Positions 1 through 33,295 of a stretch of 64,000 bases of DNA are shown here, in pieces (positions within the stretch are counted from its first letter, which is position 1; each line of letters begins with the position of its first letter). Source of the stretch: Vairimorpha necatrix (lineage: Eukaryota). The DNA is taken from contig CP142734.1 in the NCBI GenBank assembly GCA_036630325.1, forward strand, positions 248,001 to 312,000. Reading direction: 5' to 3'. The notes under the pieces were generated by a model, which saw only the letters and a list, made by a program, of their open reading frames with translations, made no database searches and was not told the origin of the DNA. The translations under genes were made by a program, and so were the position numbers.

Positions 1-1039
1 TGCCACTTTTACAACTTCATGGTTCAAAATAATCGTGTTTATGTTTTACGTTCCCCCGTTGTATAAACATTCAAAAAAACTTGTTTTTATATGGATTATT
101 GAATTCTTTTAAATAAGTCGTCGTTAAATAATACGTATTGAACAATCTCTATATCCATTAATAATTTTATTTCCACATTAAAATGATAAAGCAAATACGA
201 AGGATACCTATTTAATTACATAAATATAAATCTCAGTTTATCTGCTTACAGACTTTACGAGCCGCAACATTACATTTTATTCGATTTCAATTATAGAATC
301 TCCTCGTTGATATCCACGTATAGTTTAAAGTGGTTTATATAAACTTATGGTTAAATTTGGACTTGTAATTTGTTTTTATATGTAATACATATCACGATTT
401 AAGACATTTACATTCTCCCTGTGCCTTATAGTAAGTGCATTAGTCCTATAACCATTTCCATTTTTGAATCCATTAAAATACAATATAAATAAATTAAACA
501 CGTTAGATGAATTTGAATATAAATTTTTAAAAAATAATAATTATGTTTCGCAACATACTAATTTTTTTCTTGTTATGTTTAATGCAAACGAGAATATATC
601 ACAACGTGAGAAATTTAAATGATCTTTCCTACGAAGATTGATTTCAATTATTTACTAGTAAACGAATATAGTAAAATACGGCAATGTTTTTTCTTAAAAT
701 ATTGACGCTTTATTAAAGAACTTTTAACGTATTACAAACAAAGAAAGTTGTGAATGAAATTATTAATAATTAAATATCAACAAGACATGTATAAAAGAGA
801 AGAAAACGGTAGCAAATAATTAATTAACCCCTAATACATAAATTTTAAAAGTAATATATTTTAATAAGCATTAATAAAGTTGCGTTGTTTATGTCATATA
901 TAGACAAAAAGGCATAAAAGTTTTATTCAATATAACTTAATAAATTATTCAAGATTTTATTCAATGATTTTAATATATCAAACTTCTTCTACATATCAAT
1001 ACGATTGTTGTATAACGATTTAAATTGAATACAATTTAT

Positions 1040-1990
1040 TTATATGCCAGTACTATATAAACCTGAAAGAAATGCGGGATAAAATAACACAATTACATAT
1101 AAAAAATTCCCTAATACACTTTCTGAAGTAAATTTCGTAAAATATTCCGAAGAATACCTATAAGGATATGATTTAGCGTTTTTAAGGTTAATTACGTTAT
1201 TTGTTTCTTGTTTAATAAAAACGTTATCTGAAATAAAATTATCATCGTTTTTTTGTTGTCTTGTATTATTATTTTTACTATGTAGTTTAAAATCGCATTT
1301 TCTACTTGCATCTTTCAAATCTTCGTTCGTTGTTTGTTCAATAAATCCAATGTTTAAATTTTTATCTTTCAAAATTTTTGTTTCTAGTTCGCTGGTTTCG
1401 GATAAAACATCATCAAAATTGTAGATATTATTCTCTTGAAAAAAAAATTTCGGACATTTAACAAACAAATCTAGAATTTTTCCACTTACATCTAAACTTT
1501 TTTTCCCCCAAAAATCTAACTTCTTAAAAAATATTCCATTCTCACAATAGTATATTTGAGAATGTGCCCATGATATGGAAGCGTTTTCTTTTTCAGTAAA
1601 AATCACATCAAAATAAAAGCATTTGAAATCATGTATATTAAATTGAGCTTTATAATATCTAACACTATTTATAAAATCACTACGGTAGGTTTCTTCTTTA
1701 GTCTCAAGTGCCAATTTCCTTGTTTTTTCATAATCTTTTTTGTCTATTAAATTCAAAGGAAGTCCTTTGTTTATTGTACATTCAAATTTACTTTTTAGAT
1801 TATCATCTTTTATGTTGGTAATCCAGGTATTTAAAACTTCTGTAAAGATAAAAAAATTGTAATTGGCGATTTTATCAGCTTTCGAGGAAACTCCGACATA
1901 TACATCACAAGTATGATTATCCTCATGCTTTACAAAAAAATATAATGAACAATTTGCAAAAATTATACAAAATAATAGATCTAAAACCAT
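1040..1990 (-). CDS. Lineage-specific hypothetical protein (316 aa) with N-terminal signal-peptide-like and C-terminal hydrophobic segments
   Basis: Long ORF in AT-rich DNA. Start context TTTTATACCCC-ATG carries the CCC motif. Hydrophobic N-terminus MVLDLLFCIIFANCS and hydrophobic C-terminus (FLYVIVLFYPAFLSGL). No recognisable domain. Confidence 0.8.
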   Translation of the reverse strand: MVLDLLFCIIFANCSLYFFVKHEDNHTCDVYVGVSSKADKIANYNFFIFTEVLNTWITNIKDDNLKSKFECTINKGLPLNLIDKKDYEKTRKLALETKEETYRSDFINSVRYYKAQFNIHDFKCFYFDVIFTEKENASISWAHSQIYYCENGIFFKKLDFWGKKSLDVSGKILDLFVKCPKFFFQENNIYNFDDVLSETSELETKILKDKNLNIGFIEQTTNEDLKDASRKCDFKLHSKNNNTRQQKNDDNFISDNVFIKQETNNVINLKNAKSYPYRYSSEYFTKFTSESVLGNFLYVIVLFYPAFLSGLYSTGI

Positions 1991-4279
1991 GGGGTATAAA
2001 ATATGCGAATATATTTACAAAATTCATTTGAACCAATTAATGACATACATTGTATGTTTTTTGTACATTCTGATAAATCAATGAAAAAACATAACTAAAA
2101 AAGGAAAAATAAAATGTTATAGCTCATATTTTATAAAAAAATATGATACTAGCTATGATTTGAAATTCAATAACATTATATTCTATTCAAATTGATTTTT
2201 CGGTGTTTATATTTATTTTTATTTATAATTTATGAAAATGCATAATGCTGTATTATGTTATGATTATCATTTAAGTGTTATTTATAGCTATGATGATTTC
2301 AAAGAGTTTATTGTAAAACGTTTATCTTGTTAAAAAGAGGATATTTTCTGTTAATTTCTCACATATATCATTATAAGTCTATTAACATTATATGAATAAA
2401 GGGAAATTATTGAGATATTAATCATAATATGGCAACGACCAAATATAATTGTAAATTTGAATTATAATAAGTAAAACGCTCTTATACAATTAAGATTTCT
2501 ACTATTTGAATTTATATGCCAATATAAAACTTTAGAATTGTAAAAATTTGACTACATTGCACAAAAAATATTAATATTGTAGAAGTTTTATTTTTTATAA
2601 TGTTTATAATAATTATTGATGTTTGACTTTGATTTGATATCTAATACGTCCTCAACGTTGTTTTTAATATTACTTTGCATGAGTATTAGAAATTGTTATT
2701 TTAATGATGTGACTAAATTAATCTATGGACACATATAGAGTGCTAAATATTTTTGCGAGATTATTAAAGAAAACATTAAATTGAATTCTGTTAAAATAGT
2801 CTTATTTTTTGCAATACGGAATGAAATAGGAGAATTAGTGAGCATGAAATCTTTATTATATATATTTTTATTATTAGTTTATTGAATGGTGCGTTTCGTG
2901 TTATAGTTCGTTCTATTATCAAATAATAGTAAGTGTTAGTTAAAACCAAATATTTTAAGTGTAAAATACATAGTATAATTAATGATTCATATGTAACGGA
3001 CAGGTTATATAGATCAAAAATTAGGTTAAGAAAAAATAAAAGGAATACAGCTTGAAATAAAGGCCGTTTTTACATACTTAATATATTTATATTGTAAAAT
3101 ACAACCATAATTGTAATTTACACGGATTATAAAGTTTAATTTCGTCAGCTTCAATTTAACTAGTTTATTTCAAATTCTTTTACTTTTGATAAAAAACATA
3201 ATTTGGTAAACCATGGCTATGTTCGATCGCCCATAACACTTTCAAGGAGATTTGAGAATAGTAAACTGAAGATTCCCAATCGGTAAAAGAAGGCTCTCAA
3301 ACATTGAATATTCATTAGTTGATTTTATCCACACCAATATGGGCATGATTACCTTTTATTAATGTAGTCAAAAAAGATTTGTACATTTTAACACAAACAC
3401 AATTATGAAACGAAGGAAAAAGATAGAATAGTATTCTCTTGCATTCTAGGAGTCCAAAAAATACTTGAATTTTTTTCATTTATAAAATTTGTATTTTTAG
3501 TTGATTTAAAAGAATCTTTACTATAAAAAAAAAATTTTTTGGTCGAGTCGCATATGAATTAAAAATACACATTGTAAAAAATTTAAGATAAAAAGAGTTC
3601 GACAATGAAATGTAACAGTTTGATATCTAGCACTAAGATTATCCTGTAATCATTCTATTGTAGATACTCATCCAATATATCTGCTTTAAAATATTTACTA
3701 CAAATAATAAATAAATATTTTACTCTTCTAAAAATATTATGAAAGGAGATAAGCTGCTTTTTTTACAATAAACAATGAAAAACGTAATTAAATAAAACTA
3801 AAATCTTGGAAAAAATATTAGTTTACGCAATTAAAGAGAATTTCGGGTTTTTTTATAATTTGAACTGCTAAAAATATCTTAAAACCAACAAATTTTTTTT
3901 ATTAAAACACTCTTTGCTTTTAATTTTTTTAAAAAAGATATATATATTACTAAAATACAAATTTAGCAAGAACGACAGAAACAAGCGGAGGTTAAATAAT
4001 ATATGACGAAGCACGCAGTTTTGAAAAGAAACCGATTCAAATTATTGTCAAAATATGGTGCGATATATGAAAATGTTTGCTTAAGAAAGAATAAAATATT
4101 TAAAAAAAAATAGTTGTTATTTATTGTTTTTTTAATGTTAAATAATCATAAAATTTTAGATTATGAATATAAAAATGAATAACATTTAAAAGATGAGGAG
4201 GGTTTGTGATTTAATACTGGTCTAATTATAAAATTTTAGGCAAAAATTTGCATTTATTGTGACTAAGGTCAAAGCAAGA

Positions 4280-8875: not shown

Positions 8876-10600
8876 AAATTTATCTATGTAATCAATGAGA
8901 TAAAAATTTGATGGCTAGAGCGGTATTAGCTTGATTTACGCAACATTCACTTTTATGTTAATCTGAGTTTTTTAGCCAAATCTTAAAAGACTTTTCTGTT
9001 AAGTCCGCCTTCCACACATAATTAAGATTTATTTCTTTTAGCCTTGATTAAAAAGAGTTGAAACGAAAAAAGCAAAGGAGAAAAAACCAAAAAATAATAG
9101 TTAACATAAAATAGTGGTTAACTCAAAGCAATAAAATATTTTGCATTTTTTTCAGCTTTTGAATACACCCTTCTAGAAAAATCAAGACTCATTTCTATCG
9201 AGAATATTTATTATAGTGAATTACAACAAAGTAAATAATATTATGTAATAAGTGTAATATATTTTTTAGACTTCATGTTATTTCTGACTATAATTATTGT
9301 TTGATCACAAACATTAAATTTGTTTTTTTCATAAGTCTATGTAAAACTAATGAATTATATATTGAAAAATTAAAGAATATAATAAAAAAGTGATATTATG
9401 TCTCTGTAAAATATTTTAAACACCATTGTATAAATTTCAACATGTTTAAGATTAACAAAAACTAATAATAATGTCACGGGAATGTAAAGTTAAATATAGT
9501 TTCAGATATACATATCTTTTTAATGTTAATTTTCGAAAAGAATTTATGGAGGGTATTATAATTTTTTTATATCACATGCTCAAATCAGATCTCAAAAGTT
9601 TATTTTTGTATTTTGTAATTTTTTATTTCCTTATACCCGTTCTGACCATTTTAATTTTATGATTCGCGGTTAAAAAAATATAAATAAAAAAAGTTTTTTG
9701 TATGTATAAACCAACTCTCCTACTAGTCCTTTTAAAATTTCATTTATAATTTAAAGATATATCAACTTTAGAGTCAAAGTATTTCGTATGTATTATTAAT
9801 TATTAAACTTTAAATAAACGTTAAAAAACGGGATTAAAACTAAGAAAAAAATCGTCGCAAATTTAATATCAATATATTTTAACTCTATTTACATTGATCT
9901 TGCAACAAAAAAAGAAAATAAATATGCTTTGGCCATGAAATTAAGATAATTGACAAATATTTGGATCAAAATATCTACAAGATAGGCTTTGAACTTGACG
10001 TTCAATATAGTTCAACTCTAAAAAAAAAGTTCAAAAAGGAGTTGTAAAGAAATTCCTGTGGTATTATTTGACACATTAATTTATTTATCTCAAAATTAAT
10101 TTTCTAGAAAATATTCGCTATAAATACTTTCTTTTTTTTACTTATCGATCTTTAAATGAGAAGAGAACAGAGAGTCTACAATGATAACGGGAGGGTATCT
10201 AGCACCCTACCCCATCAAAAGAGGAACTATGCAAGTCCACGGGGCACTTAAATAAACATAATTTAAATAAAAATATACTTTATAATATTGCAGGGAGGAG
10301 CATCTAAGAATTCCACAAACAAACAGGCCGACTCCCCGGTGGTAACACCACAATTGCCAACTTCTAACTTCTTTTTTTCAGTCTAGAAAAAATTTTAAAT
10401 TATTAAAAAGAAAATTAAAATATTCTTCTAAGTTCTGCTTTAAGTTTTATTGATAAACAGAAATTTAAAATTCATTATTGAAGCATGTTGGTATAACCCC
10501 TTTTTGACGCAGCCGTCAATTATTTCTAGCTTCTTATTATTTCTCAGGGGGATAGCAAAGCAAAAAGGATAACTCGATTAGCAAGTGTTGTACGCAAGAC

Positions 10601-10727
10601 TGTTATTAGAAAACATGGGGTTATTTATTTACTGAATTTATAGTCCAAATGTCACATGTCAAATATCTTGTGTCAAATGTCATTTGATAAATAATTGTAT
10701 GTCATTTGACATGTTATACTTTCAACA
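10601..10727 (-). repeat. 3' LTR of element A
   Basis: TG...CA direct repeat of 14078-14204, directly preceded by the PPT on the minus strand. Confidence 0.95.
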
Positions 10728-13022: not shown

Positions 13023-14093
13023 TCATTCGATTTGGCAATCTTTACCAAAATTAATTTTAACATTGTGTTTTCTGAGGAAGTTAAGTCCAATGATCATGTT
13101 AGAAGTTATATCATTCGTTACCACAAAGTTTTCTTCGAAAACTTTCTCTCCCATCATAAACTTTTGTTTTATCACACCTAAAGTCTTGATTTCTGTACCA
13201 TTGGCTGAAATGAGGTTTCTTGCCGGTTCTAATGCCTTATTCCTTACAAAATTTCCTTTAATTAAATTTACACATGCTCCAGAGTCGACTAGTGCTTGTA
13301 TTTTAAAATGTCCGATATTAACTAAGACTGTAAGGTCTTTAGTACACGTGTCCCCAAGGGATCGAACACAATTATAGAAATTAGGAGTTTTATTGTCGTC
13401 AAGTACGTCATTATCTTCAAGAGGACTTCCAATTTCCCTAATTATCCTACTATTTCGTTCCCGTTTTTGCTTTTGGCAGTCTTTCTTAAAATGTCCCTTT
13501 CTACCGCAGTACCAGCATTCCTTATTATTTTGCACTTTGCAAACTTCCATCTGATTCTCCTGAGGCCTTTCTGGTAACATCCTGTAAGATCTCGACCTAC
13601 TGCTGCAATCCAATCCTTCGCATGCATTATAAATATAGTTCCAAGTGACTTCCGCCGGAGTATTCATGAGTAACATGCCTCCAATATCTTCGGGCAGTCC
13701 ATTCAATACGAAAGCAATTAACACATTGTCTGGGAGAGCAGCTTTCATTGCTAGCCGCTTCATTTGATCAAGATAAAGTAAGAATGACCCTTCCGTGTAT
13801 AAACATCTTGCCAGATTTTTTATGTGTCCGACGCTGCTTAGTCTTCCTTTAAATCTTCTTAAGAATGCCTCACATAGCTCTTCAAATCCACAGCTCCATG
13901 GCACTGATTCAGTCCAAATTGTTGCTTCCCCCGCTAAGTGGTCTCTAAAGAAAAAGATTTTCCCTTCTTCACCACAATTGGCTATCGTTGTCCATCCCCT
14001 TACGTATGCCAAAAAGGCATCGGGATCATCCTCTCTGCTATTTCTAAAAGTTTTTTTGTTTGCCGTTGTCGCCAAACTGTTATTAGAAAACAT
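13023..14093 (-). CDS. Gag-protease portion of the element A polyprotein
   Basis: Zinc knuckle CWYCGRKGHFKKDC and aspartic protease LVDSGA. The ATG has CCCC context inside the 5' LTR. The frame continues into RT after a TGA. Confidence 0.9.
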   Translation of the reverse strand: MFSNNSLATTANKKTFRNSREDDPDAFLAYVRGWTTIANCGEEGKIFFFRDHLAGEATIWTESVPWSCGFEELCEAFLRRFKGRLSSVGHIKNLARCLYTEGSFLLYLDQMKRLAMKAALPDNVLIAFVLNGLPEDIGGMLLMNTPAEVTWNYIYNACEGLDCSSRSRSYRMLPERPQENQMEVCKVQNNKECWYCGRKGHFKKDCQKQKRERNSRIIREIGSPLEDNDVLDDNKTPNFYNCVRSLGDTCTKDLTVLVNIGHFKIQALVDSGACVNLIKGNFVRNKALEPARNLISANGTEIKTLGVIKQKFMMGEKVFEENFVVTNDITSNMIIGLNFLRKHNVKINFGKDCQIE

Positions 14094-14204: not shown

Positions 14205-14954
14205 GCAAGCACTTTGAATAATAAAAACAAAAATAAATATAATTTATAAATGTAGTATCATATTATTGAGATTTGATTATATTTTTTTTACAATTACTTT
14301 TTATTCAACTTTGTGTTTGTAAAAATAAGTTGCTTTGTTTTTTGATAGAATTTTTACTAAAAATTTTCTCTTAAAACAAATGAGTCCTGTCAAATAATAC
14401 ATAAAATGATGAATGTTATTAATATACACCAGCAACTAGCTTGTTAATTTCTTTGACGAAAATGCTTAGTAAACGTTAAAAGAGGAATGACGGGGAGATA
14501 GTAAACAGTTATACACAAGACAGGTTCTACGATGTTTTCTAGCTACAAAAAAAATCTTATAAATGGATTTTTACATAAGATCACGCAAATAAAAACTAGT
14601 ATAAATAGTTTTTTATACAAAAGTGATATATTTTGTATGTTTTTAAATAAAAAGTGTTAGTAAAAGTTGGGCTGTTTTGTTTCTCCTTTTTATATTCCCA
14701 TCCAGGGGGCAATCTCCTAAAGCAATGTCAAATAAAAGATAATTTACACTGCATAGTTATATATCAGAATCAAAAGCAAAAAGGAGTTGGTAAAGATTTT
14801 CATCAAAATAAACTTCATTTTTTCAATATTTTCGAAATACAATAAATACAGTTTTTAGAAATAAAAACTCAGTAGAAAGATGTCAAAATTTTCACAAGTC
14901 ACGTCAAAAGTTAATCCCTTTTTTTATATAAAAATAAAAATTTACCTTTAGGGT

Positions 14955-16943
14955 ATGGAAACCAACAAAAACATTCTGAAATATGAAAATCTTATCTATG
15001 AAGTAAAAAATAAAGATAAAAAAATTCATACTAAGTACGCTACTATAATCAATGGATTATCTGCTTCAATAGAATCTGGAAAACTTACTGCGGTTATGGG
15101 GGCCAGTGGTTGTGGTAAAACACATTTGTTTGAATTGCTTATAGGGAATTTACCTGCTGACTGTAAGACATCAGGGAAAATAACCTACAACGAACAAGAA
15201 AAAGATGAGAAAAATTGGGTTAAACAGATAGCATTTCTTCCTCAGGATGATATCTATTATCCTGATTTGACCACTTATGAATCAATTATGTACAACCTCT
15301 CATTTAATTCGAATACCTATAAGGAAAATGTTAAGATAGCAAACGAAGCTATTGAAAGCGCATGCATTTCTAACAAAAAAGATGCTCCGATAAAAACCTT
15401 GTCTGGTGGTGAAAGGAAAAGAGCCATGATAGCTATTACAATGGCAAACAATCCTGAGATTTTAATATTAGATGAACCAACAACTGGTCTTGATTCTCAT
15501 AGTGCATTGAAAATTGTTGAGAGTCTAAAAAAATATGCAGTTTATAATAATAAAATAGTTATAATGACAGTGCATCAACCAGGAGATGGTATGTTCAGTT
15601 TATTCGATGATTTATTATTTTTGACTAGAGGTGGAATGTTTTATTCTGGACCAGCTAATGAAATTAATAGATTCTTAGAATCAAATAATATTATTCCGCC
15701 ATCAAACATGTCACATTCAGAAGTGCTTTTCATTTTACATTCAGATCCCGAAGAATCTGAATTTGCAAGAAAACATGAAAGTGTTGTTAAGGACATCGTT
15801 TATAGAAATGCAGTAAAAAATCAATTGCCAGAACCCAAAGTATGTAATAACAAAAAAATGTTCTTTTTTGATCTTAACTTTAGACATGCTCTAATATTGG
15901 TAAAACATAATTTTAAATTAATGCTGAAAAGTCCGGATAGATTGAAGAATTTTATTTTATTTTTTTTACTAAGTTTGCCTACCTATGGATTGACGTTTCT
16001 TAGAATCTGGCTTAAAAGCCGCAAAGAATTAAAGACAATTTATGAAATGCTAGGAAAAACGGGGCAATTTGATTTTTCAGAAAAGTTTGCTCTATCTTAC
16101 GCGTTGTTTACCAGTGAATTTGCTCTTTCCGTTGCTTTTTGGACAACATTTTTTAGTATAAACATGCAAGATGAAGTTATTTTGAAAATGGAATTATTTA
16201 CAAGACAATATTCTGCAATGACGTACTATTTGTATAACTTTTTGCAGAAATTTTTGTGTTCTTACATTTTCCTGAGTATTAGTTTTCTACTTTTATTTAT
16301 TATTGATTTTAATATTGGCTACTCTAAAGAAATTTTATGTTTATCATTTCCCATTATCGTGATATCTTTATTTTTCACGGTTGCAAGCAATTTATTGCTA
16401 ACATCAATTCCTTTGGGCAAGAAGATTTCATATTTCTTTGTCTTAAGTAATTCATGTGGAATATATTATGCGCATTCTATAATAATCGATTGGTACAGAA
16501 AAAAAATGTGTGGTCTATGGGACAAGTTACCTTATTTATTGGATTTGCTATTGATTTTCCCTAACTATTGTTTTGACATTTATTCTATGACTAGAATGCG
16601 TATAACAATGAGAAATTCTAAATCAAAAGATTTCCAAAATAAAATTGAAGTAATAAAGCCGTATGAAAAATTTTTGATGGAGGGCTCTATGATTAAAGAA
16701 ACTTACGCAGAAGACACTCCAATCATTAGAACTAGAAATTATGAAAATTACTATATATTTGAGATGCCGGTCGAACTTAAAAAAGACCCTAAATTTGCTC
16801 TATCGTTAATTTCCTTTGATATTACACCAAATATTTTACTATATTTTATTATTCCCTTAAGTCTGTCTGTCTGCGTAATGTTGACATTATTTATGATAAA
16901 GTTAAAAAAAGTTCCTAACATTAGAACTAAACTTATGAACTAA
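14955..16943 (+). CDS. ABCG (White-like) half ABC transporter
   Basis: Walker A GASGCGKT, signature LSGGERKR, Walker B ILILDEPTTGLD, H-loop TVHQP. NBD precedes a multi-TM domain. GGGT directly precedes the ATG. Confidence 0.95.
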   Translation: METNKNILKYENLIYEVKNKDKKIHTKYATIINGLSASIESGKLTAVMGASGCGKTHLFELLIGNLPADCKTSGKITYNEQEKDEKNWVKQIAFLPQDDIYYPDLTTYESIMYNLSFNSNTYKENVKIANEAIESACISNKKDAPIKTLSGGERKRAMIAITMANNPEILILDEPTTGLDSHSALKIVESLKKYAVYNNKIVIMTVHQPGDGMFSLFDDLLFLTRGGMFYSGPANEINRFLESNNIIPPSNMSHSEVLFILHSDPEESEFARKHESVVKDIVYRNAVKNQLPEPKVCNNKKMFFFDLNFRHALILVKHNFKLMLKSPDRLKNFILFFLLSLPTYGLTFLRIWLKSRKELKTIYEMLGKTGQFDFSEKFALSYALFTSEFALSVAFWTTFFSINMQDEVILKMELFTRQYSAMTYYLYNFLQKFLCSYIFLSISFLLLFIIDFNIGYSKEILCLSFPIIVISLFFTVASNLLLTSIPLGKKISYFFVLSNSCGIYYAHSIIIDWYRKKMCGLWDKLPYLLDLLLIFPNYCFDIYSMTRMRITMRNSKSKDFQNKIEVIKPYEKFLMEGSMIKETYAEDTPIIRTRNYENYYIFEMPVELKKDPKFALSLISFDITPNILLYFIIPLSLSVCVMLTLFMIKLKKVPNIRTKLMN

Positions 16944-17238: not shown

Positions 17239-17252
17239 CGTAAAACATATTA

Positions 17253-20200
17253 TGTGATATATTTGTATAATTTCTATCCCCCATTATTATAAATAAAGAC
17301 ATGGGGCGATACCGAATCGTCAGTTTACAAGTGTGGACTGTGGTCTAGAGGCCAAAAAGTTATTAAAAGAAGTTAGAAGAATAATGTATAGGTTGGAGAT
17401 GGAGGAAATAGAAATCAGTTTGTGGAAGCAGAGAATATTTATGGAAGGAAGTGAAGAAATAAAAAATTTCATGGTAGAAAGAATTAGTAAAGAGGACGAA
17501 TATTATAAAATAATTGAGAAATTAGAGGAGGAAATATGTAGAGAAGAAAGAACTAAAAAAGAAGAAGAAAATAGGAAAGAACTTATGGAGGTCATAGCTG
17601 AGAATGTTAGAGAAACTGTGAGAAAAGAAATTCAAGAGAAAGATTTAGTTTTAAGGAATACAGTACAAGAAATAAGAAATAATAGGAATTGTTTTAATTG
17701 TGGTAAATTTGGCCATATGGCTAGGAACTGCTATGTAGGAAGGAACAATAATCAGGAAAATAATAAAAAGTTTAATAAGTACTTAAATTTAGACGAAAAC
17801 CAAAGTTGTAGTAGCAGTAATGATAATAAAGAATATAAACCAAGTGGAAAGACAAAACGAGTTAAGTTGAAGGAATGTAATAATAGTGATAGAAGACATA
17901 AAGAAAGAATATATGCGAACAATAAAGAGACGAAAAGAAGATTACTGAAGAAGGCATTTACGTTGGAAGATCTCAAAGCGGAATATGAAGAAGTTTTTAA
18001 ACAAGGAGATGAGGTTATAAGTTATTGTACATTAGAGAAGTGTAAGATAGATACTCCAGAGGGTAAGAAGATAGTCAGAAAGAGACAGACGATCCCACAG
18101 GCTTTGATCAAACAGACTGAGGAATATATTAATGATTTAGAAAATAGAAAAATTATAAGAAGATCGTCTTCAGAATGGCGAAACCCAATAAGAGCGATAC
18201 TTAAACCAAGTGGTGAAGTAAGAGTAGTTAGTAATTTTATAGGGTTGAATGATTTAGTCGAGAAAAACCCGTATGAGCTAACGAATATGAGAGAAATAAT
18301 AAGAGCTACGCAAGGGTCGATAATATTTACTGTTGTTGATTGCAAAGAAGCATTTTACCATTTTGAAATTGAAGAAAAAGATAAACATAAGACGGCGTTT
18401 GAATTTAATAAAAAAGTTTACGAATGGAATAGTATGGTGATGGGATACAAAAATTCCCCACAGATACTACAGAGAACGATGAATATGATTTTTGAAGATT
18501 TGCGGGGAAATGGTGTTGAGGTATACATGGACGATATAGTAATACATGCCAACAATAAACGTAAACACGATGAATTAGTAATAGAGGTTATAGAAAGAAT
18601 TAAGAAAATAAAATGAAATTAAATATTGGGAAAATACAGTTTAGACAAGCGGAAGTAAAATTATTAGGTGTGACGCTGAATGGAATAGACATGACGGCCG
18701 ACGAAATAAAGAAAAATGAAGCCTTGGAGTATCCGGATCCAAAAACTTTGACGGAATTGAGGAGGTTTCTAGGATTGACTGGATGGTTCAGACCATTTAT
18801 AAAAGATTATGCCGGGCTGACGTTGAAAATGACAGATAGTTTGAAGAAAAATGGCAATTCGTGGAAATTTACGGAAGAGATGAAAGAGGAATTTACTAAA
18901 ATGAAAAATGTGTTAAGAAATATGGGAAGACTAAGATTACCGGACTATAATAAGGAGTTCATACTAAGAACAGACGCTAGCAATTTGAGATTGGGTGCGG
19001 TGTTACTTCAGAAGAATGAGAATGGGGAATGGGTTGCTATACAATGGGCATCTAAAAAGCTAACACCTACCGAAATAAGATATGGAATATCAGAAAAGGA
19101 AATGCTTGCGATATATTGGGGAATTGATAAATTTAAATACGAGTTAAGAGGTAGGAAATTCAAGATAGAAACGGATCACAAAGCACTGGTGGAGATAAGA
19201 AATAAACCGTTTTTCAATAATAACAGAATAAATCGTTTAATCGAGAAGATACAGGAATATGATTTTATCGTTGAATATAAAAAACCTGATGAGATGGTGG
19301 TAGCAGATGCGTTGAGTCGAATAAATATGGAAGAGGATATTAAAGAAATGAAAAAAAAAAGCGAACAATCAAGCAAACAGAAGGTAAATGGAAAGCACAT
19401 GTTTCTTCCGAGAATGGAAAGCAATATTGGCAATTTGACTCAGGACGTAAAGTTGAAATACCACCTGAGAATATAAGGAGACAATTAATCCAAGAATATC
19501 ATGAAAAAGTAGGCCACAGATGCATGACAAGTGTTTATTATGCAATGAGAGAAGAATACTATTGGCCAGGAGTAAAGAAAGAAGTAAACGAGGTTATAAA
19601 ACAGTGTCAGAAATGTCAGATATATAACAGGAAAAATATGGGTGGTTGTGAATTTGTAGATACGTCGAGATACTTAGAGAAGGTTGCATTAGATTTGATA
19701 GACTTTAGAAATGAGAAGAAATATGTTTTAGTTGCTATCGATTATTTTACACGTAGAGTATGGGGAGTAGTTATAAATAACAAGTCAAGTAATAATGTTG
19801 TTGGATTTTTGAAAAGATTATGTGAGCAAGGGAAGAAACCAGAAGAAATTATTACAGATAACGGGAAAGAGTTTATTAACGTGGAATTTAGGAAATTTTG
19901 TAGAGATCTCGATATAATACACCGACAAGTAAGTATAGAAGCGCATAGAAGTAACGGAAGAGTAGAGCGTGTTATAGGAACTTTGAGAGAAAGTATTTTA
20001 AAGTCGGATGCGAAAACTTTTGAAGGTAAAGTGTATAAAAGTATCGATATATATAATCAGAGCTATCATACGGGAATAAAATGTACACCATTAGAAGCGA
20101 CTAAGATTTAACTGGAGACGTAATGCTTGAAAATAGCCCTATAAGGAAATATTGTAATAGGTTTGGAAAGGGAAAGATCGAAAAATTTAGTAAAGGTCAA

Positions 20201-20466
20201 TTGGTAAGAATAGCTAAACGAGAAAATTTGGCAGGTGTTAATAAGTATGAAAAAGGAAGATTTTTGGATACAGGAAAAATTGTTGAAAAGTGTGGAAAGG
20301 ATTCTTATATTGTAAAACTTAGTAATGGTAGGCTTGTGAAGAAGAGACATTATGATCTGAAGGGTATGCTTGGGGTAGATGTGAAAATTAGATGAGACTA
20401 ACCGTCTTGAGGGGGGATGTGATATATTTGTATAATTTCTATCCCCCATTATGATAAATAAAGACA
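17253..20466 (+). mobile_element. Full-length miniature Ty3/gypsy element B (3214 bp, 49-bp LTRs, no visible protease)
   Basis: LTRs at 17253-17301 and 20418-20466 differ at 1 position. TSD TATTA on both sides. PBS-like TGGGGCGATACCG at 17302. PPT GAGGGGGGA before the 3' LTR. ORFs carry gag zinc knuckle, RT (YMDD), RNase H and integrase. Confidence 0.95.
17301..20395 (+). pseudogene. gag-pol polyprotein of element B, split by small frameshifts
   Basis: ORF 17333-18616 has CFNCGKFGHMARNC, SSSEWRNP, YMDD. ORF 18613-19476 has TDAS, TDHKAL, VADALSR. ORF 19524-20111 has WPG..CQKC, LDLID, TDNGKEF, SNGRVER. ORF 20123-20395 is the C-terminal tail. Confidence 0.9.
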
Positions 20467-21415
20467 TATTATACCGCTAGTAAAGAAGGTTTTACAAACA
20501 AATAATTTGTGGTATTACAAATACCACAAATTATTTGCTATTTAATTCAAGTACTAATATACACAATGATTCCAAACCTAACATCTCCTCCTCAAAATGG
20601 TTAGTCTTGCATTCTTAATTTCTTTGAGATCATAATGTCTTTTCGAAATAATTTTCCTCCTTGACCGCTATTAACAATAGATCATTTTCAGAAATTTCTT
20701 TAATAAAGTCTTCTCTTTCGAATATACTACTATCCTGTTTACTAACATTGCCAAAACCTTCTCTTTTCGTATTCTACTGGCTGACCTTCTGTAAACTTTT
20801 CTTTCGCACTTTTTATAAATTTACCTCCATAGTCTTCATCACTTAGTTTTCAACTTTACAATATATTTTTTCCTTTCGTTAACAGCCCTGTAGGTGTACA
20901 CTGAAGTCTATTATGATACGTCCTATAATATATCAACATCTTAATATTAACTTCAGCCCCATCGTCCTCCCCCCTGCTATAACACGCTTTCCCACATCGT
21001 TCTTATCGCCCCTTCAACTGGCCGTTCATCTACGAGCTTCACACTAACCTTCTTATGTTAAATCTGGGTTATCAAATAACAATTTTCAAAGTCTTCACAA
21101 AAAAACCTTGAAATTATCGCTTATAATCTATTAATGAAGATCTAGTATTAAACCAATACTCCATTTTACCAATAATCATCTTTGTACTTTTATCTTTATA
21201 TCACTAACATACCAATACCGAGTAAAGTAGTCAATTTATATCAAAATCACTTTAATAGGTTCGCCAATCTCCATGAAATCAATAACGAGTTTCTCGACTT
21301 TATAACTCGATGTAAGATTTTAAAACCACTTTCGTTCTTTCTATTGCCCATCATAATCACCATACATGCTCTAATTTATCATTTCACTTGATATTTTATT
21401 TCAGGCCGACAATAA

Positions 21416-22953: not shown

Positions 22954-23256
22954 TGACGTAATCCAGAGGAGCTACCTCTGGATAAATAATGTTCTAAAAA
23001 ATTAATAGTTTTATTATTGGTTTTATAGCCTTGTTGGGCATCTGCATTGGGAGTCTGGTCCCTGGCTTTAGAGCCCTTCCTTGGTCTTGCGTTCCAAGGG
23101 AATTGTTCGTTATTCTTTTTATTCATCCGGTAGGGGTCAGGGCAAAAAAGAAATAAATATTTGATTTTTGGAATGGACCGGTCGAATGGTCTATTTTCCA
23201 AAAAGGGTAATTTGATTAATTTTAAATAATTAATTTGTGGTATTTGTAATACCACA
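22954..23256. mobile_element. 303-bp solo LTR-like insertion
   Basis: TG...CA termini with a perfect 5-bp TSD CTTTC at 22949-22953 and 23257-23261. It interrupts the RNase H region of element C. Confidence 0.85.
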
Positions 23257-25809
23257 CTTTCAATTTATTTGTTTTCTTTGTTAATATTTAAGAAGGGTTG
23301 TTCCTGATTTCGTCTGCGGCTTTATGGTCTGTCATTTGAGAATTTCCTTCCTCTCAATTCGTATGAAAACTTTTCTATGCGCCATACAACCGCTAACATC
23401 TCCTTTTCCATTATTGCATATCTTCTATTATTGTGTCGATTTTTTCGAGGCACATTGTAGGCATCCACATCCATATTTATTCTTCTGATAAAGCACTTTA
23501 AGGAATCATTTGACATTTTCTTACATCTTTTGCACTTTTAGATGTTCTTGTAAAACATTTTACCTTAGTAAATATTATCTTTGCCTCCGATGGTTTTAAA
23601 AACCTGCAAATTATTCAACTTTAATTCTAAATGTAAGCTCTAATTTTCTCTTTCCAAATTATATTTGATCTTTCACACTCTTTAACACATGTTCATTCAT
23701 CTTACTAACATAATAAAACTTCTTTTTTTTTGTTATATTAAAATTGCTCCTCATATCCTTTCTGTCTATGCAATTCCTGGAAATATAGTCTTTATTTATC
23801 CCGTAGAACTTTTTCAAACACTTGTTTTTCTTCAACCCTTAATTTTAATACAATACTGACCCGCTTTTGTGACAGTTTTTCTTTAACATCCAAACGAAAT
23901 TTACTCTTATTTATAATTTCGGTGTTTCATATTTATTTTACAATTTCATTTCGATACATACAACTTTTTGCTTCATATCTCATCTTACCACATACAAAAT
24001 ACTACTTTTATTCGCTTCTTTTATAACAATGATTATCCGGAGCTGCTAACATCATGGCCTGTTATCTATTAATTTCATTTATTAGATCTTTTAACATTCC
24101 CCCAACTGACTCTTTAACTCTTTTCTTCCCTATTTATTCTTTCTCATCTTCTTCTTAAACTATATTTCCGATTTTCTATATAATTTCATTCCCATTTTTT
24201 ATTTTCTTAACAGATCCTGCAGTTCGATACTTGCTTGTCAGAATCCCTGCTTCAAAGACTTTCCTTCCACTTCTTCCTCCATTCTAGTCATCACTCCTAT
24301 TCTTTTGGCCCTTTTTTAGGTTCTGGCTCGCTGCCACGAGTCTCACTTGTCGTCCCACTCCTTTTGTGTTCGCCATGTTAGTACTTAATTCATTTGGGTT
24401 TAAACCCAACATATAATATGACTTTAGATTTTATTTCATAAATAGAAAAGTATTAATACATGTCAAATAATATTAATATCTTTTCTTATTATCTTAAATA
24501 TCTTTTCCTTCAATATATGAACTTTGAAATTAAAAACTAGATCGGATTTGTTCTTTATTATTCCTCAAATAATTTTTTTAGTAAAATAAATTTTTTATAT
24601 TATGATACGAAGCATAAAAGTATTTTTTAATAAATATGTATCTAAATTTTTAAATAAATCTTTTATAAGTTTATTTTACTTCAACAAGAAAAGAACCCGT
24701 AGTAAACCTAGGTCCTACGAAATTTATTTCTGATTTGATTGTTTTTTATAAAAAACAAAAATTTTAGGAAAAAACGGCTTCCAATTCAGAAGACAATTCT
24801 TAAAATTCAAACACAAAGACATACTCATTTTTCAATATTGCTAAATTTCTATTTTTATATCTAATCAACATTTTAATTTAAGTTCGACAAGTCTGCCAAC
24901 CATTTGACAAAATTTGTTATTTATAAATAAGGTTGAAAAGGTGTATTAAAAAACTTTTTATGCAAGGCCGACCTCACTTTTTTACATAAAAAACGATATG
25001 GCCGAAAAAAATTAAAATTATCTTTTCACGATAAAAACTATAAACAAGCTCTAAAACATGCTAATATTAACATCAACAAAAAAGTACTCTTGTTAATCTG
25101 AAGAATAAAATTATAATTAAGACTTAAGACGTTATAACGATTTTTGCGAACATTTACAACCTCTTGGATGTGAAAATAAGACTAAAAATCAAGTAATGAA
25201 ATATGGTACATTTCTGTCCGACAAGTTTAATCAATAAATTTGAACAATAAGAGCAAATCTATAAAAAATACCAACAGCAAAATACAATAAAAATTAATAC
25301 TTTGTAATTTAAACGAATTCAAAGGAAATTTTAAAGAGAAATGGAGTTGTTTTGAATGACAAACACAAAATGACAGATTAAATAGTATAGAAACATCTTA
25401 TTTAAAAAAAAAAAAGCATAAGTTTATCTATTTAAAGGATATTTTAATGTAAATCACATCAAAACAATGAAACGATAATATTGTCCTATAATCATGTCCT
25501 ATCAATGATAACATATAAGAATTTTAATATCTTTTAGCCATAAGAATTATTATAAACACATTTACATAATGTGTTGAACATAATTAGTTCCATAATTTCG
25601 GAAGAGCTGTATTTTATGCATAAACCTATATATTAAACTGATTCTATCCAAATCTTAATTCAAATTTTTTTTTGATACTTTGACCGAACAAATATTCTTA
25701 TAATTAAAATGATAAGCAAATAAAAATACCAAGGTTAAAATTGATATGTTTGAATATATCCTAAAAACATCATATAAAAAATAAAAAGAAAATACTAAAC
25801 GATATTTAT

Positions 25810-27486
25810 TGTGGCGCGCGAGCGTTGACCCCCTAAAAAACGTAAAAAAAATAAGAAATAAAAAGAACACAAAAAAATTTTAAAATTGAATTTTAATTAT
25901 AGTTTTTTAAGCCTTGACATAGGGAAAATTTGAGTTCCTTCTTCAGTTTCACATTTCACTCTGTTGTTTGAGAGAATTTCTATAATCTTAACTTCTTTAG
26001 AAAAAAATGAAGATAGTTTTAGTTTTTTTTGTTTTGATATTATTATCAAAATCTTTACCTACAGCGACTTTGTCCAATTTTAAAAGTATATTTTGAGATA
26101 TGAACCAATGAATGACGATCCACTCTTGCAAGGTAATTTATATCAACTGAACCAGTTTCAGTTTGTTCTTTAAAAACACTATTCGACAAATCTCTTTTAT
26201 TTACTGTCTCTAGTATAAACTCAAATTCTTTTAAGCTATCATCTGAAGACTCGTTCTCATCTTGCGTATAAACAGAATTAAATCCTGGTATTTTTAAGAA
26301 TAAATTAAAAGGAACCTGCTTTGTCGCACTATGTTTGGCCAAATTGTAGTTGTAAGCTACTTTATTTAGATGTTTCAGCCATTCCTTTTCTTCTTCAGTT
26401 TTAGAATTGTCAACTGCTAACAAACTTTATTTAAATACATGTTTTTGTATTGTTCGCGTTAAAGTTTGATTAAACCATTCTATTTGCCCGTTTGATTGTG
26501 GGTGACGGGCCTACTATGTTTTTGAACAATAAAAAAGTCTGAACAAAGTTTCCTTATATGGGAATTGCAGAATTACTTTCTATTATCGCTTTGAAGGATC
26601 TTGGGTGGACCTGTCATATTGTAAAATAAAAATTTAATTTTTTTTAGTAACCTCGTCACCCGCTTTACTTTTCAATGGAAAGGCCCAGGCAAACTTAGAA
26701 TACACATATATTATTGTTAAAATCCAACAATACCATCGTTAAACCTTTTATAGCGTGTCATATCGATTAAATCGATCATAAATCGTTCCACCGGTTTAGA
26801 GGCCGTAATATGTACTTGCCGCTCTAAATTTTTTAACGGTTGTGATTGTCCACATGTGATGCATTCGGAAACGATTTTTCTTATAATGTCCCTAGGAATT
26901 TTTAAAAAAACCTTATTGCATGATGCTTCGAATCGGTTAACGCCCCTGTGATGAAGCTGATGGAAGGCTCTACATTCCACTTAGATGGCCTCAAGCTGTT
27001 CACTATGAAAAACCTTGAGGTGGTTCTCATTAGCCTCGTCCCTTAAATATAGCGCCCCATCTATAAGAAGGTAATTACCAGCTTTTTGTTTCAACCGTTT
27101 TTTTGTTGCTTTTCTAAAACAACGTCATTGTCCCTGCCTAGTAAAACTAATTTTAAATTACTGTATTCACTAGCATTTCTAAGAGGAAGAATCATTTTTA
27201 AGAGGATAAAAAAAATCTTTTTATTTATCAATTGTCATTATGTAAGTATTTTTGTATTTTTTATTTTTTTTAATTTAGTATGCCATGGTCGAGTGGTATG
27301 CTTGCTTGATTTTTTCACGTGGGCCGCGGGTTCGAATCCAGTTTAATGCGTTTATTTTTTTAAAAAAGATTTAACTTAGACAGGGCTTTTTAAAGGAGGG
27401 GTCAATGCCTGGCGGGATTGAAGTTTCATTGAGGATCAATGCTTGCACAAGCTGGAAATCCTAGGGGTCAACGCTCGCGCGCCACA
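25810..27486 (-). mobile_element. Ginger2-like (KRBA2/SCAND3-type integrase) DNA transposon, pseudogenised
   Basis: Perfect 23-bp TIRs TGTGGCGCGCGAGCGTTGACCCC at 25810-25832 and 27464-27486. Integrase fragments HQLHHRG..CITC, ERFMIDLIDM, AWAFPLKSK, GPPKILQSDN, HPQSNGQIE, YNLAKHSAT. No RT or gag. Confidence 0.85.
27278..27350 (+). promoter_or_regulatory. tRNA-like Pol III A/B box module inside the Ginger-like element
   Basis: A box TGGTCGAGTGG at 27286-27296, perfect B box GGTTCGAATCC at 27329-27339, downstream T-run. The cloverleaf is poorly conserved. Confidence 0.6.
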
Positions 27487-29456
27487 ATAATTATACAGCC
27501 CCAACAAAGATTGTAATTTCTTCTTACTTTTAGGAATTGGTAACTGTTGAATGCTCCTAACTCTTTCTTCGTCCACACTTATTCCCTCTTTTGCTAGAAC
27601 AAGAGCTAAAATTTTTAATTCGGTCTTATTAAATTTGCATTTCTCCTTATTAAGTTTAAGCCCTACGACTTGAGCTTTTCTAATACCATTTTAACATCTC
27701 TCTTGTGATCTTCTTGTGTTTTACTATAAATTAATATATCATCCATACATACTACCACAAACTTAAACAAAAATTCCCTCAATATGTTATTCATCACCCG
27801 CTGAAATGTAGCTGGACCATTTCAAGTCCAAATGTCATTTTAGTAAATTCAAATAACCCTTCTCTACAGGCGAAGACTGTTTTTTCTATATTACATGGCA
27901 CCATATCAATTTGATGATATCCCGATTCAGCGTTCAATTTTGTAAAGAACGTAGCACCTTCTAATGCATTTATGAATTCTTCTACTCGAGGCGTTGGATA
28001 TGCGTCTCTAATCATCGCATCAATTAACCTTCGATAATCCACACATAATCTGTGGTCTCCATTATTTTTGGGACTATAATTTTTGTTGCTTCTTTATAAG
28101 CTTACACTAGATCTAATTATTCCACGTTTCAGATATTTTTTCACTATTTAAGACGCAATATCCTCTTTTGCTTCCATTACTTATACAACCTAGATAGTAT
28201 TGAGTTATCATCCTTTGTGATAATTTTATGATATCCTTTGGCTTTCCCTTTGCCAAAAGTCCCGATCTAATTTCCATTTTGTTATTTCCAAATTTTAAAT
28301 TTATCTTATACATGTCGAGTAACCCTTGTTCTATAATGCAGGGAGTTGATATCCCTAGTAATAATAAATTTATCTTCAAATATCATTCCGTTAATTTTTA
28401 TTTTAATTAATGTTTCTTCAATGGTCCTTATTTTCGATTCATTGGGTGCCTAAGTTGTTGCTTAGAACGATTAACAACGGTTTTATTTAGCAAAAGCTAA
28501 GGTCTTATTAGATTTATATCAGCACCAGTATCTATGAGCACTTTAAATTATATTTCCGAATCATTTAGTGACGCTTCTTTGAGCGTAGTCCTAGTATCCT
28601 TAAACTTTGCAAAAGGGTAATTATAAATAAATTCATCTACATCCACCCTTTTATTTTCATCTTACTCTTGACTTTTTTTGACTTTGCTAATATCTCTACA
28701 GTAGCTATTAAATTTACATCGTGCTACTATATGGCCTTTCTTTCCGCAAATAAAACATCTATTTTCCTTCTTCCTTTTGGAAGTCCAATTCTTTCTATAG
28801 TCGTTATTGTAGCTAATCGCTTTTACATCCACATAACCTCCATGCGAAATTTCAGTATAACGTGTATCATCCACTTCCATAACATTCCTGGAGGACTATA
28901 TAAGTACTTCAAGATAACATGTCTTCTTGTTTATTAATATCGAATTTGCTAATTGGTTTAGAATTCCTTTTAGCACAAAGGAGATCAATACGCCTTCCGG
29001 AACATTATCCCTGCGCGCCAATCCAGCCATCTTGTCTAGATAGTTGATGGCCGATCCGCCATGATATTGAAGGGCGGACAGTTTATCTATACTCACTTTC
29101 ATCGCCATGGGACCAACAAATCTTTCTCGAAACAGAAATTTCAATCTTTCCAGTGAAATACCAATTGGCTGCGCTATTAACCAATCCCACGCCTCTTCCT
29201 TTATCGATATTCTGAGCAAAAGTGTAAGTTTACTCTCACTGTGTTCCATCAGCCTCCCCACATCCTGCAAGTCCTCCAAGAACTGCAGTATATCATCCTT
29301 CTCTTCATTTCTAAAAATGAGAAAGTTCCTGACGTTGTCGCCAAATTTTTGGGATGAAAACATGGGTTTAATTATTATAAAATATTTAAAAAAGCACAGC
29401 GTCAAATATATCAAAACAATGACACGATATATTTGACATGTGTAGCACTTCCTACA
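27487..29456 (-). mobile_element. 3'-truncated Ty3/gypsy element D (5' LTR, PBS, gag, PR, RT)
   Basis: CCC-ATG at 29363 (MFSSQKFGDNVR). PBS TGGCGACAACGTCAGG at 29343-29328. Zinc knuckle CFICGKKGHIVARC, protease VLIDTGAD ~28530, RT DYRRL, SGYHQ, YMDD. It ends at the Ginger TIR. Confidence 0.85.
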
Positions 29457-31323
29457 CTATAGACAATAGAAAATCAAATAGTTTATAGAAATTATTAGAA
29501 AAAATTTTATACTACATGGAATCGAGTTTTATAGTAACTAATTTAAATTTTTTTGTTATTATAAAAGCTATTTTCTTACGCGTAAAACTATTATATAATC
29601 TAAGAGTTTGTTAAAAAATCAACAAATTTATGTGTTAATATTTTTGAGGGAAAGTGTTAGTTAGAATAAAAAACTCCAGGATCGCTCCAAAACAAAGACC
29701 TTAAAAACTTTTTTTTAAAAGATTTACGTAGATATAAAATTTGAAGATGTTTTATTCATTCCTTTTTTCCGCTTCGACTTTTCAAAAAAGAAGCTTTTAA
29801 AATAATAGTTTATTGGCTAGAGTAAACATTTAAGACTCTTATAATATTAAGAAATGCATTGTAGACTTTTTTCATAATAAATCATTTGTGTCTTATGCTA
29901 AAAAAATTCCGTTCCTTTTTGGTTTGTGGTATTTGTTACCAAATTACAAAATAGAATCATAGCGATTTTTACCACAAAAAGATTCTTTTTTGTCTAGAAA
30001 CTTATTATATTGACGCAATTATTTATTGAAGAGCGTAAAATTTTCCGTGATCTATTTTATTTCTATATATTACATTGACAAAATACTCTTGGAAATTTAC
30101 TCTAAGTATTATAGCAAGTGAGATGGTATAATTAAAGTTTTTATTAGTTATATGTAACAGCAATCCATTTCAAATATTCAAATTGCATTATAAAAGTAAA
30201 TTAACTACAGAGATAAATTTATGTGTACTAAATGTGTAAGTTTGCCAATTGAAGTAAATACTTTAAACCATTGTTTTATATATAAAAAAGCAGTATTTTT
30301 GATTCTTTTTATTTGAATGCAAGATACTATAATATAAAACTGATCGCAATATATTAATTCCCTGATATTGAATCACGGACAGAAGCTTTTATTAGGTATA
30401 TATATATATATAAGACGTTATAGTGGTTTTTTAAACAAACTACTAATATATTCGGCATCTCTCAACACTCTACGTAATATTTAGAAAATTAGAAAACCAT
30501 AAAGAACTGTGGCAATGTCTTATGGGTTTATGGATAATAGAAATAAGATTATAAGAAAATATTATGGTCGATGAAAAAAAAATAATACTTTTTGAGGATT
30601 CTTCAAAATTATCTGGAAAAAATCAAAGTTAATACTGACTTTCAAATCATACGTAATTTTAAAAAATTTGTGTTTATCGTTTTTTATATAGATTGTCAAA
30701 AGGTTTATAATAATGTAATTGAATTCTACTATAAACTTACTTTTATGTTTTTAAGTTTAAAAATAGATAAACTTAGTAGAAAAATATTATTGGAATTTTG
30801 TTGTTACGTCGTGTGTTATAAGTGATTTAAAAGGAGGGTTGGTAGACAATATATTATCGTAATAGGAGTAAAGGACACAAAATCCATTTTCAAAAATATC
30901 ATATGGATATATGGCAACAAGTTTATCTTGGCTAAAACCACTAGAATTTTATATTTAAAATATGATTTTTGGCATTATTTTTTTATAAGGGAGCTAGATC
31001 AAAAGTATATAAGACGATGTTTAAACAATGCACAAAGACTAAAAATTTTGACCTAGGTGTATTAAATTTTTTGCATTATCAATTTGAAAAAAATCGATTT
31101 ATTAATATAAAGAACAAATTTAGTTTCTACAATTAAAAACAACATTAAAATGCTTTAAAATGAACACTTTCTATAACTAACGAGAGGAAATTAACAAATA
31201 AAATTTATATATCAAAAGTAGCCTGACAATTTTGTTACCTGATAATCCTTAATTATGATGAGTTTCAATATATCATTTAAAAACTCCTTTTTAATATACA
31301 AAATAAAAATTTATTTTTGGGGC

Positions 31324-33295
31324 ATGAAATCAGTCAAAAACATTTTAAAATATGAAAATCTTATTCATGAAGTGAAAAATAAAGATGAAAAAATTCATAC
31401 TAAGTACGCTACTATAATCAATGGATTATCTGCTTCAATAGAATCTGGGAAACTTACTGCGGTTATGGGAGCCAGTGGTTGTGGTAAAACACATTTGTTT
31501 GAATTGCTTATAGGGAATTTACCAGCTGACTGTAAGACATCAGGGAAAATAACCTACAACGAACAAGAAAGAGATGAGAAAAATTGGGTTAAACAGATAG
31601 CATTTCTTCCTCAGGATGATATATATTATCCTGATTTGACCACTTATGAATCAATTATGTACAACCTCTCATTTAATTCGAATACCTATAAGGAAAATGT
31701 TAAGATAGCAAACGAAGCTATTGAAAGCGCATGCATTTCTAACAAAAAAGATGCTCCGATAAAAACCTTGTCTGGTGGTGAAAGGAAAAGAGCCATGATA
31801 GCTATTACAATGGCAAACAATCCTGAGATTTTAATATTAGATGAACCAACAACTGGTCTTGATTCTCATAGTGCATTGAAAATTGTTGAGAGTCTAAAAA
31901 AATATGCAGTTGATAATAATAAAATAGTTATAATGACAGTGCATCAACCAGGAGATGGTATGTTCAGTTTATTCGATGATTTATTATTTTTGACTAGAGG
32001 TGGAATGTTTTATTCTGGACCAGCTAATGAAATTAATAGATTCTTAGAATCAAATAATATTATTCCACCATCAAACATGTCACATTCAGAAGTGCTTTTC
32101 ATTTTACATTCAGATCCCGAAGAATCTGAATTTGCAAGAAAACATGAAAGTGTTGTTAAGGACATCGTTTATAGAAATGCAGTAAAAAATCAATTGCCAG
32201 AACCCAAAGTATGTAATAACAAAAAAATGTTTTTTTTTGATATAAACTTTAGACATGCTCTAATATTGGTAAAACATAATTTTAAATTAATGCTGAAAAG
32301 TCCGGATAGATTGAAGAATTTTATTTTATTTTTTTTACTAAGTTTTTTGTCTTATGTACGGATTATTTTAAGAAAATTTATGAATAAACCTGAAAAAATA
32401 GTTAATGTTTTTGAACTTCTGAGAAAAGCAAATTTAGATTTTTCCGAAAAGTTTGCCTTATCGTACGCATTGTTTACAAATGAGTTTATGTTTCAAATTG
32501 CTTTATGGACTACATATTTTAGTATAAACATGCAAGATGAAGTTATTTTGAAAATGGAATTGTTCACTAAAAAATATTCTGCAATGACATATTATTTGTA
32601 TAACTTTTCACAGAAGTTTTTGTGTTCCTACATTTTAATTACAATTGGATATTTACTTATGTTTATTATTGATTTTAATTCTGGTTATCCAAAAGAAATT
32701 ATGTATTTGTTATACCTTATTATAATACTATCATTATTTTTAACTATCTCAGTGAATTTATTGCTATCTTCGATTCCTTTAGGCAAAAAGATATCAAATT
32801 TGATGATCTTATGTAATACACTTGGAATATGGAATATGGAATATGCATACATTAGTAATTAATTGGTATAAGGATTCTATGGATCGTATCTGGGGCAAAT
32901 TACCTTATTTATTGGAATTTCTATTGCTTTTCCCAAATTATTGTTTAGACGTTTACTTAATGACTAGAATGCGAATTATCCGTAGAAATACAAAATCAGA
33001 CATTTTTTTCAAGTTTATTGAACTAATGAAAGGCTATGAATCGAAAAACAGAGAAACTTATGTAGAAGACTCTCCAATACTGAGAACCAGAAATAAATCT
33101 GCATACTTTGGATATTTAATACCCAATGAATACGGGAAAGACCCCAAGTTTGCTCTGTCTTTGGTTTCTTTTAATTTAAGACTTAATTCTTTTTTATATA
33201 TTATTCCAGCTAGTCTTTCTATCTGCGTAGTGTTAACATTGTTTATGATATGGTTAAGTAAAGTTCCTAACATCAGACTCACACTTATGAACTAA
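31324..33295 (+). pseudogene. ABCG half transporter paralogue, frameshifted at ~32823-32843
   Basis: NBD nearly identical to 14955-16943. The likely start is ATG 31324 (GGGGC-ATG), which aligns with the paralogue. A third TGGAATA unit shifts the frame, and the C-terminus continues in ORF 32822-33295. This could be an assembly artefact. Confidence 0.85.

Follow-up and report, generated by a model that had tools for sequence, protein, structure and literature searches.

Gag of element B, a 3.2-kb Ty3/gypsy-like retrotransposon in the genome of the microsporidian Vairimorpha necatrix, probably starts at an ATG inside the long terminal repeat (LTR). This ATG lies five codons before another ATG, which is formed where the LTR meets the primer-binding site (PBS). 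The junction Met is forced by the terminal A of the LTR and the TGG of the PBS in that frame; it probably does not serve as the start but simply comes with the construction of the element. Annotation that begins at the junction Met would leave out a conserved leader that lies within the LTR.

Structure of element B

The window (the whole 64,000-nucleotide stretch of contig CP142734.1 that was analysed) is AT-rich, with a GC content of 21-38%. It belongs to a genome of 15.0 Mb in 12 contigs. Element B occupies positions 17253-20466 of the plus strand and is flanked by a 5-bp target-site duplication (TSD), TATTA, at 17248-17252 and 20467-20471. TSDs match in most of its sisters as well. The LTRs (17253-17301 and 20418-20466) are 49 bp each, run from TG to CA, and differ by one mismatch. 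In the 5' LTR, an AAATTT-like tract followed by CCCCC (17278-17282) spans 17267-17282 and resembles a microsporidian promoter-type motif (PMC2803860). The AATAAA at 17292-17297 is a putative poly(A) signal and reads as Asn-Lys in the leaders of sister copies. The PBS, for tRNA-Pro(AGG), is at 17302-17314, and a polypurine tract (PPT) adjoins the 3' LTR at 20409-20417.

The coding region of the window copy is in four frame segments. The first (17297-18616) holds the Gag region with a CCHC knuckle at about 17687-17731, followed directly by reverse transcriptase (RT) from about 18197, without a protease. The second (18604-19476) holds the end of RT and RNase H, and the third and fourth (19344-20395) hold integrase (H2C2 and rve) and the C-terminal segment. 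The window copy is thus a broken copy, with three frame breaks besides the two defects of its leader described below. In the frame of a sister, Pfam places RVT_1 at residues 300-460, RT_RNaseH at 549-654, H2C2 at 722-778, and rve at 799-876. The CCHC knuckle is present, and the first 130 residues of Gag match no Pfam capsid family.

The LTR/PBS junction and the primer tRNA

As the preliminary description of this DNA had it, the last base of the LTR (A17301) and the TG of the PBS form an ATG at 17301-17303, and in the sequence layout an in-frame ATG overlaps both the integrase att end and the PBS. The window copy has four Gs at 17303-17306. Its junction ATG is out of frame with the open reading frame at 17297-18616 and meets a stop after 15 codons. 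The same description proposed that one more G would restore the frame, and sister copies bear this out. A genome search for relatives of element B (40 scored matches from 112 candidates) gave 30 loci, one of which is the window copy. Among these 30 best B-family loci, the junction ATG is found in 26 (window copy counted) and the spacing is long in 23 and short in seven. Nineteen of the 29 sisters have five Gs, which puts the junction ATG in the Gag frame as codon 6. From there, one unbroken frame of 1032 amino acids (aa) is open in three of 27 B stretches, and one of 1018 aa in five of seven stretches of a related family, B'. In the contigs of run X1, the five-G form and the LTR-ATG form are the majority, and the LTR ATG site shows a T>G difference from the window copy; this run is possibly the source sample and is not counted as independent evidence.

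Priming by tRNA-Pro, also suggested earlier, fits. Among 50 distinct tRNA sequences, tRNA-Pro(AGG) with its CCA end can pair with the five-G PBS over 14 nt, while the next-best tRNA reaches 8 nt. Self-priming of the Tf1/sushi type, in which the 5' end of the transcript itself takes the place of the tRNA at the PBS, was rejected for element B, since a hairpin between the C-run of the LTR and the PBS is not significant (z -1.3 and -1.4) and a host tRNA matches the PBS over 14 nt. An 11-mer resembling the tRNA D-arm at 17340-17350 also occurs in Arg-primed relatives, where the same motif is found, and encodes a conserved GQE-like peptide.

Note that a terminal A abutting TGG without a spacer always spells ATG. 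Therefore only its frame (1 in 3) is informative.

An ATG inside the LTR at the usual host spacing

In 23 of the 29 sisters the LTR itself contains a second in-frame ATG, which precedes the junction ATG by 15 nt. The leader from this ATG reads M-I-N-K-D-M-G-A-I-P. Among the 34 B and B' stretches checked, all eight copies with one unbroken frame have it in both LTRs. The site in the window copy, 17286-17288, is ATT in the 5' LTR owing to a G-to-T change at 17288, and this is why the LTR ATG was missed earlier. Its 3' LTR retains both the ATG (20451-20453) and AATAAA (20457-20462). The proposal that only the 5' junction creates a start is not supported, because both LTRs of most sisters carry the in-frame ATG. 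The change at 17288 is common to two separate insertions, the window copy and L082 (G000:C1:1066790); the 3' LTRs of both keep G, and the changed site is near the presumed transcript start.

The LTR ATG sits 3 nt after the CCCCC, which comes after the AAATTT-like tract, and the junction ATG 18 nt after it. For microsporidian genes, PMC2803860 gives the order AAATTT-CCC-ATG with CCC just upstream of the ATG, and 5' untranslated regions (UTRs) under 7 nt. The promoter-type motif has 234 matches in the V. necatrix genome, against 28 for a reversed control. The spacing was benchmarked on 63 host open reading frames of at least 200 aa, in which the first ATG is the start by definition. The distance from the end of CCC to the first ATG is 0-6 nt in 24 of them, 7-12 nt in eight and 17-20 nt in one, and 25 have none. 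Random ATGs fall in the 0-6 nt band in 2.5% of cases and in the 17-20 nt band in 1.5%. The LTR ATG fits the usual host spacing; the junction ATG does not.

Leaders of other element families

A zinc-knuckle search (150 scored of 251 candidates) added 40 element stretches. In all, 107 stretches were examined; a PBS together with a knuckle was located in 84 of them and missed in 23. Going downstream from the last CCC run, 75 of the 84 reach their first ATG before the junction, in frame with it and with no stop between, at 6, 9, 15, 18, 24, 27, 33 or 39 nt from the junction. About ten of the stretches are repeats of the same element, and what should be counted is some 12 leader types, primed by Pro, Arg, Ala or Ser tRNAs. 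The nine remaining stretches comprise four without a CCC run, three in which the CCC was picked inside the leader (one family, sorted out by separate inspection), and two in which the junction ATG comes first. The last two are the window copy and L082; both are broken and both keep the ATG in the 3' LTR. Seven independent length changes between the LTR ATG and the junction all preserve the frame, with a chance of about 1 in 2000 if independence is assumed. The distance from CCC to the LTR ATG does show single-base length changes (8, 9 and 10 nt in Ala-primed families), whereas that from the LTR ATG to the junction shows none.

Some families keep the LTR ATG and have no junction ATG. Ser-primed families have a 3-nt spacer between LTR and PBS. 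In element A (leader at 14075-14093, minus strand), CCCC is followed by an ATG at 14093 inside the LTR, and a GTT spacer leads to TTG at the PBS for tRNA-Ser. In a fourth element (29341-29363, minus strand), CCC is followed by an ATG at 29363, and the PBS from 29343 is read in another frame as Phe-Gly-Asp. Three of its relatives have unbroken frames of about 1200 aa with the ATG directly after CCC, and their PBS is read as Phe-Gly-Asp or Phe-Gly-Glu. In these relatives the junction cannot supply the start. The zero-spacer families of the genome all keep the Met frame and are spread over two deep clades of an RT tree of 43 rows. This tree, which does not include the Anncaliia element retro L discussed below, has a protease-less clade of 26 rows (support 99/98).

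Several minor features of these families were seen. The 3' LTR of element A (10594-10601; 14075-14078, minus strand) is followed by GT and then an apparent TSD, CTTGC. GT is also the first two bases of the 5' spacer, and may be an untrimmed integration end or chance. In the Ala-primed families L163, L164, L187 and L194 the LTR ends in AA or TA, not CA, and only the terminal A is kept. In three protease-bearing elements (L172, L173 and L182) the whole 110-bp 5' LTR is open in the Gag frame, and two of them have a further in-frame ATG near the LTR start. All protease-less families seen, with any primer, have a GAGACTA(A/C)C...GAGGGGG motif just before the PPT (20395-20417 and, on the minus strand, 20585-20610 in the window; also L064, L175, L178 and L196). 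Long-range pairing of the region after the PBS with that before the PPT was considered and rejected: it beats all other windows in only one of 14 elements, and three rows had misplaced ends.

Related proteins and elements in other species

Named close relatives of the element B protein are from the microsporidia V. necatrix, Nosema granulosis, Enteropsectra breve and Pseudoloma neurophilia. Among the 48 closest proteins, 19 start with M-x-[HYDN]-M-[AG], compared with none of the 72 others; two of the 19 are named V. necatrix and one is near-identical to a family of this genome, so that these may not be independent. Eight of the 48 begin at a junction-type Met (five by pattern and three by eye), and P0022 and P0046 lack such a Met, all judged on protein sequences only. 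The N-terminal 25 residues, with the GQE-like motif, are conserved across species.

In DNA of other species, five loci were found in metagenomes and three in prokaryote bins; viral contigs searched for the element gave none. Among these loci only L210 shows the junction, by eye, with an upstream in-frame ATG. L208-L210 place the element clade on contigs in Clostridium and Turicibacter genome bins; these contigs are probably microsporidian contamination.

A similar layout is documented in Anncaliia algerae (Parisot et al. 2014). In Table S1 and File S1 of that study (PMC4202319), the element Aalg retro L has a 50-bp LTR, an open reading frame at 32-3049 and a total length of 3127 bp. Its sequence has CCC, ATG, six codons and then an in-frame junction ATG, and encodes a single polyprotein. 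Both ATGs are in frame in retro V, and retro O has a 3-nt spacer and TTG (PMC4202319). By our own count of Table S1, the open reading frame starts inside the LTR in 43 of the 50 complete Anncaliia elements. The layout is catalogued there without discussion, and the main text as searched has no hits for 'PBS', 'start codon' or 'protease'. The layout is therefore already in a published table, and what is gained here is interpretation rather than discovery. In the openly accessible literature that was searched, nothing was found on junction-made start codons or on protease-less microsporidian elements.

Which ATG starts Gag

From the observed layout, tRNA match, frames and spacing, we infer the start of transcription, the choice of AUG and the use of the poly(A)-like signal as follows. 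The LTR of element B is built like a microsporidian gene start, with an AT tract, a CCC motif and an ATG three bases later. Transcription would begin just after the CCC motif, and translation of the single Gag-RT-RNase H-integrase frame at the LTR AUG (the position of 17286). Ribosomes would then read AATAAA, the integrase att end and the PBS as codons 2-10, making the PBS coding, and the junction ATG would arise as a by-product of the terminal A meeting TGG in frame. tRNA-Pro would prime a strong-stop DNA of about 20 nt. AATAAA would act in the 3' LTR and be ignored next to the cap. The product would be a Gag-CCHC-RT-RNase H-integrase polyprotein. Because element B has no protease, any processing of this polyprotein would depend on the host or on protease-bearing families that share the genome.

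Some observations go against a start in the LTR. The Met frame kept by all zero-spacer families could reflect selection on the junction AUG. Only one (L130) of the four C-like copies, all of them decayed, carries an in-frame LTR ATG. Eight close proteins begin at a junction-type Met, and in two families the CCC run and the LTR ATG are 11 or 17 nt apart, which is not the commonest host spacing.

It is possible, if doubtful, that both AUGs are used. The cap-proximal LTR AUG would then be partly skipped, and the junction AUG would be a second, selected start whose polyprotein lacks the first five residues. Zero-spacer families with Pro, Arg and Ala primers alike retain the Met frame, as do retro L and retro V of Anncaliia; moreover, a purine stands at -3 and a G at +4 of the junction AUG, and among the 32 host genes whose CCC is near, only two show another Met within codons 2-14. 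However, element A and retro O, with TTG as the junction codon, preserve the same frame, and inheritance thus explains its retention. The terminal A and TGG are each needed for other reasons, P0022 and P0046 do without the junction-type Met, and host genes work with the very short 5' UTRs given in PMC2803860. An extension of this idea treats the overlap as a switch. Codons 6-10, which the PBS spans, would lie beneath a ribosome that is starting at the LTR AUG near the cap. Annealing of the primer tRNA and initiation would then be mutually exclusive, and each RNA would go either to translation or to reverse transcription. We regard such a switch, with the junction AUG as a selected second start, as unlikely. 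If true, it would occur in a protease-less element with a single open reading frame and a strong-stop DNA of only about 20 nt.

That the junction ATG is the sole start, made only at the joint of 5' LTR and PBS as the preliminary description proposed, is very improbable. It is in frame in the five-G sisters, where it opens the 1032-aa and 1018-aa frames; it is the first ATG after CCC in the window copy and L082; and eight database proteins begin at it. The earlier refuting case was that intact copies have four Gs and use a downstream ATG, or that no matching tRNA exists. All eight unbroken copies do open their frame through a five-G junction, but each has the in-frame ATG upstream in both LTRs. 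The two copies whose 5' LTR lacks it are broken and still have it in the 3' LTR. In host genes the first ATG seldom lies 18 nt from CCC, the frame constraint reaches upstream of the junction, and related families keep the LTR ATG without any junction ATG.

A start at the downstream ATG at 17384, with both upstream ATGs incidental, has hardly any plausibility: this ATG is in frame and is the first in-frame ATG of the four-G window copy, but its Met is not kept (B' and C-like relatives differ there and some B sisters change the codon), while the 25 N-terminal residues are conserved across species. Note that this ATG had been placed at 17383, and that the open reading frame assigned to 17333 begins there with GTG.

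These elements also illustrate the extent to which an LTR can shrink. Some 40-50 bases hold both integrase ends, a promoter motif of the host type, a start codon and a poly(A)-like signal, and about 20 nt are left between the presumed cap and the PBS. Minimal strand-transfer length, suppression of the 5' poly(A) signal, and competition between translation and priming become testable in one short sequence.

Absence of a protease and comparison with known elements

Element B, B' and four relatives show neither a D[ST]G motif upstream of RT nor a Pfam aspartic-protease match at E ≤ 1. By contrast, element A matches a four-family set including gag-asp_proteas. Element B has direct LTRs (TG...CA) with a TSD, the order RT-RNase H-integrase, a tRNA-complementary PBS and a PPT beside the 3' LTR, as expected of Ty3/gypsy elements. 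It does not have the aspartic protease between Gag and RT, nor the integrase before RT that marks Ty1/copia elements. Element B is thus filed as Ty3/gypsy-like and protease-less, not canonical. It has the size, the LTR and the single open reading frame of about 1000 aa of the retro L-type group. In a whole microsporidian clade, represented by element B and proteins P0001-P0048, elements with one open reading frame of about 1000 aa pass from the CCHC knuckle straight into RT without an aspartic protease, yet many young copies with identical LTRs exist.

In layout, retro L resembles element B in its LTR of about 50 bp, a reading frame that starts inside the LTR, a length of about 3.1-3.2 kb and a single polyprotein, and differs from it in host and primer site. 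In Ty1 of Saccharomyces cerevisiae, Gag starts inside the 5' LTR. Integrase precedes RT in Ty1, which further has a protease, two frameshifted open reading frames, tRNA-iMet priming, and LTRs of about 330 bp. Its PBS lies inside the GAG reading frame, according to PMC4974528. Element B is like Ty1 only in this coding PBS, and has instead the order RT-RNase H-integrase, one open reading frame, tRNA-Pro and a 49-bp LTR. With Ty3 of the same yeast it shares the order RT-RNase H-integrase, the CCHC knuckle, a tRNA PBS, a PPT and a 5-bp TSD. Ty3 has a protease. Its PBS adjoins the 5' UTR and is in the 3' UTR (PMC4974528); in element B the PBS is coding, there is no spacer, and no protease is detectable.

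Element C and neighbouring features

Element C was said to have the same junction as element B. The junction is indeed present on the minus strand (A24376|TGGCGAAC), with its ATG at 24376-24374. The PBS (24363-24375) is for tRNA-Arg(ACG/TCG); among the 50 distinct tRNA sequences, tRNA-Arg(ACG) is complementary over 13 nt and matches 16 of 18 overall. The presumed 36-bp 5' LTR of this decayed element (24376-24411, minus strand) has no confirmed twin: 44 of 500 shuffles score as high as a candidate 3' LTR near 20550-20583. The internal ATG of the 5' LTR, at 24393, precedes the junction ATG by 17 nt in a different frame and meets a stop at codon 3. Element C and L124 are one base off frame, and L128 is without an LTR ATG.

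Inverted-repeat ends of small DNA-transposon-like insertions are found in or beside element C, at 20496-20536, 23224-23256, 25802-25832 and 27464-27494. Two paralogous ABCG-type transporter genes (14952-16943 and 31246-33295) lie on either side of the cluster of LTR elements, with 16.4 kb between them, and the second of them is split by a frame break near 32830.
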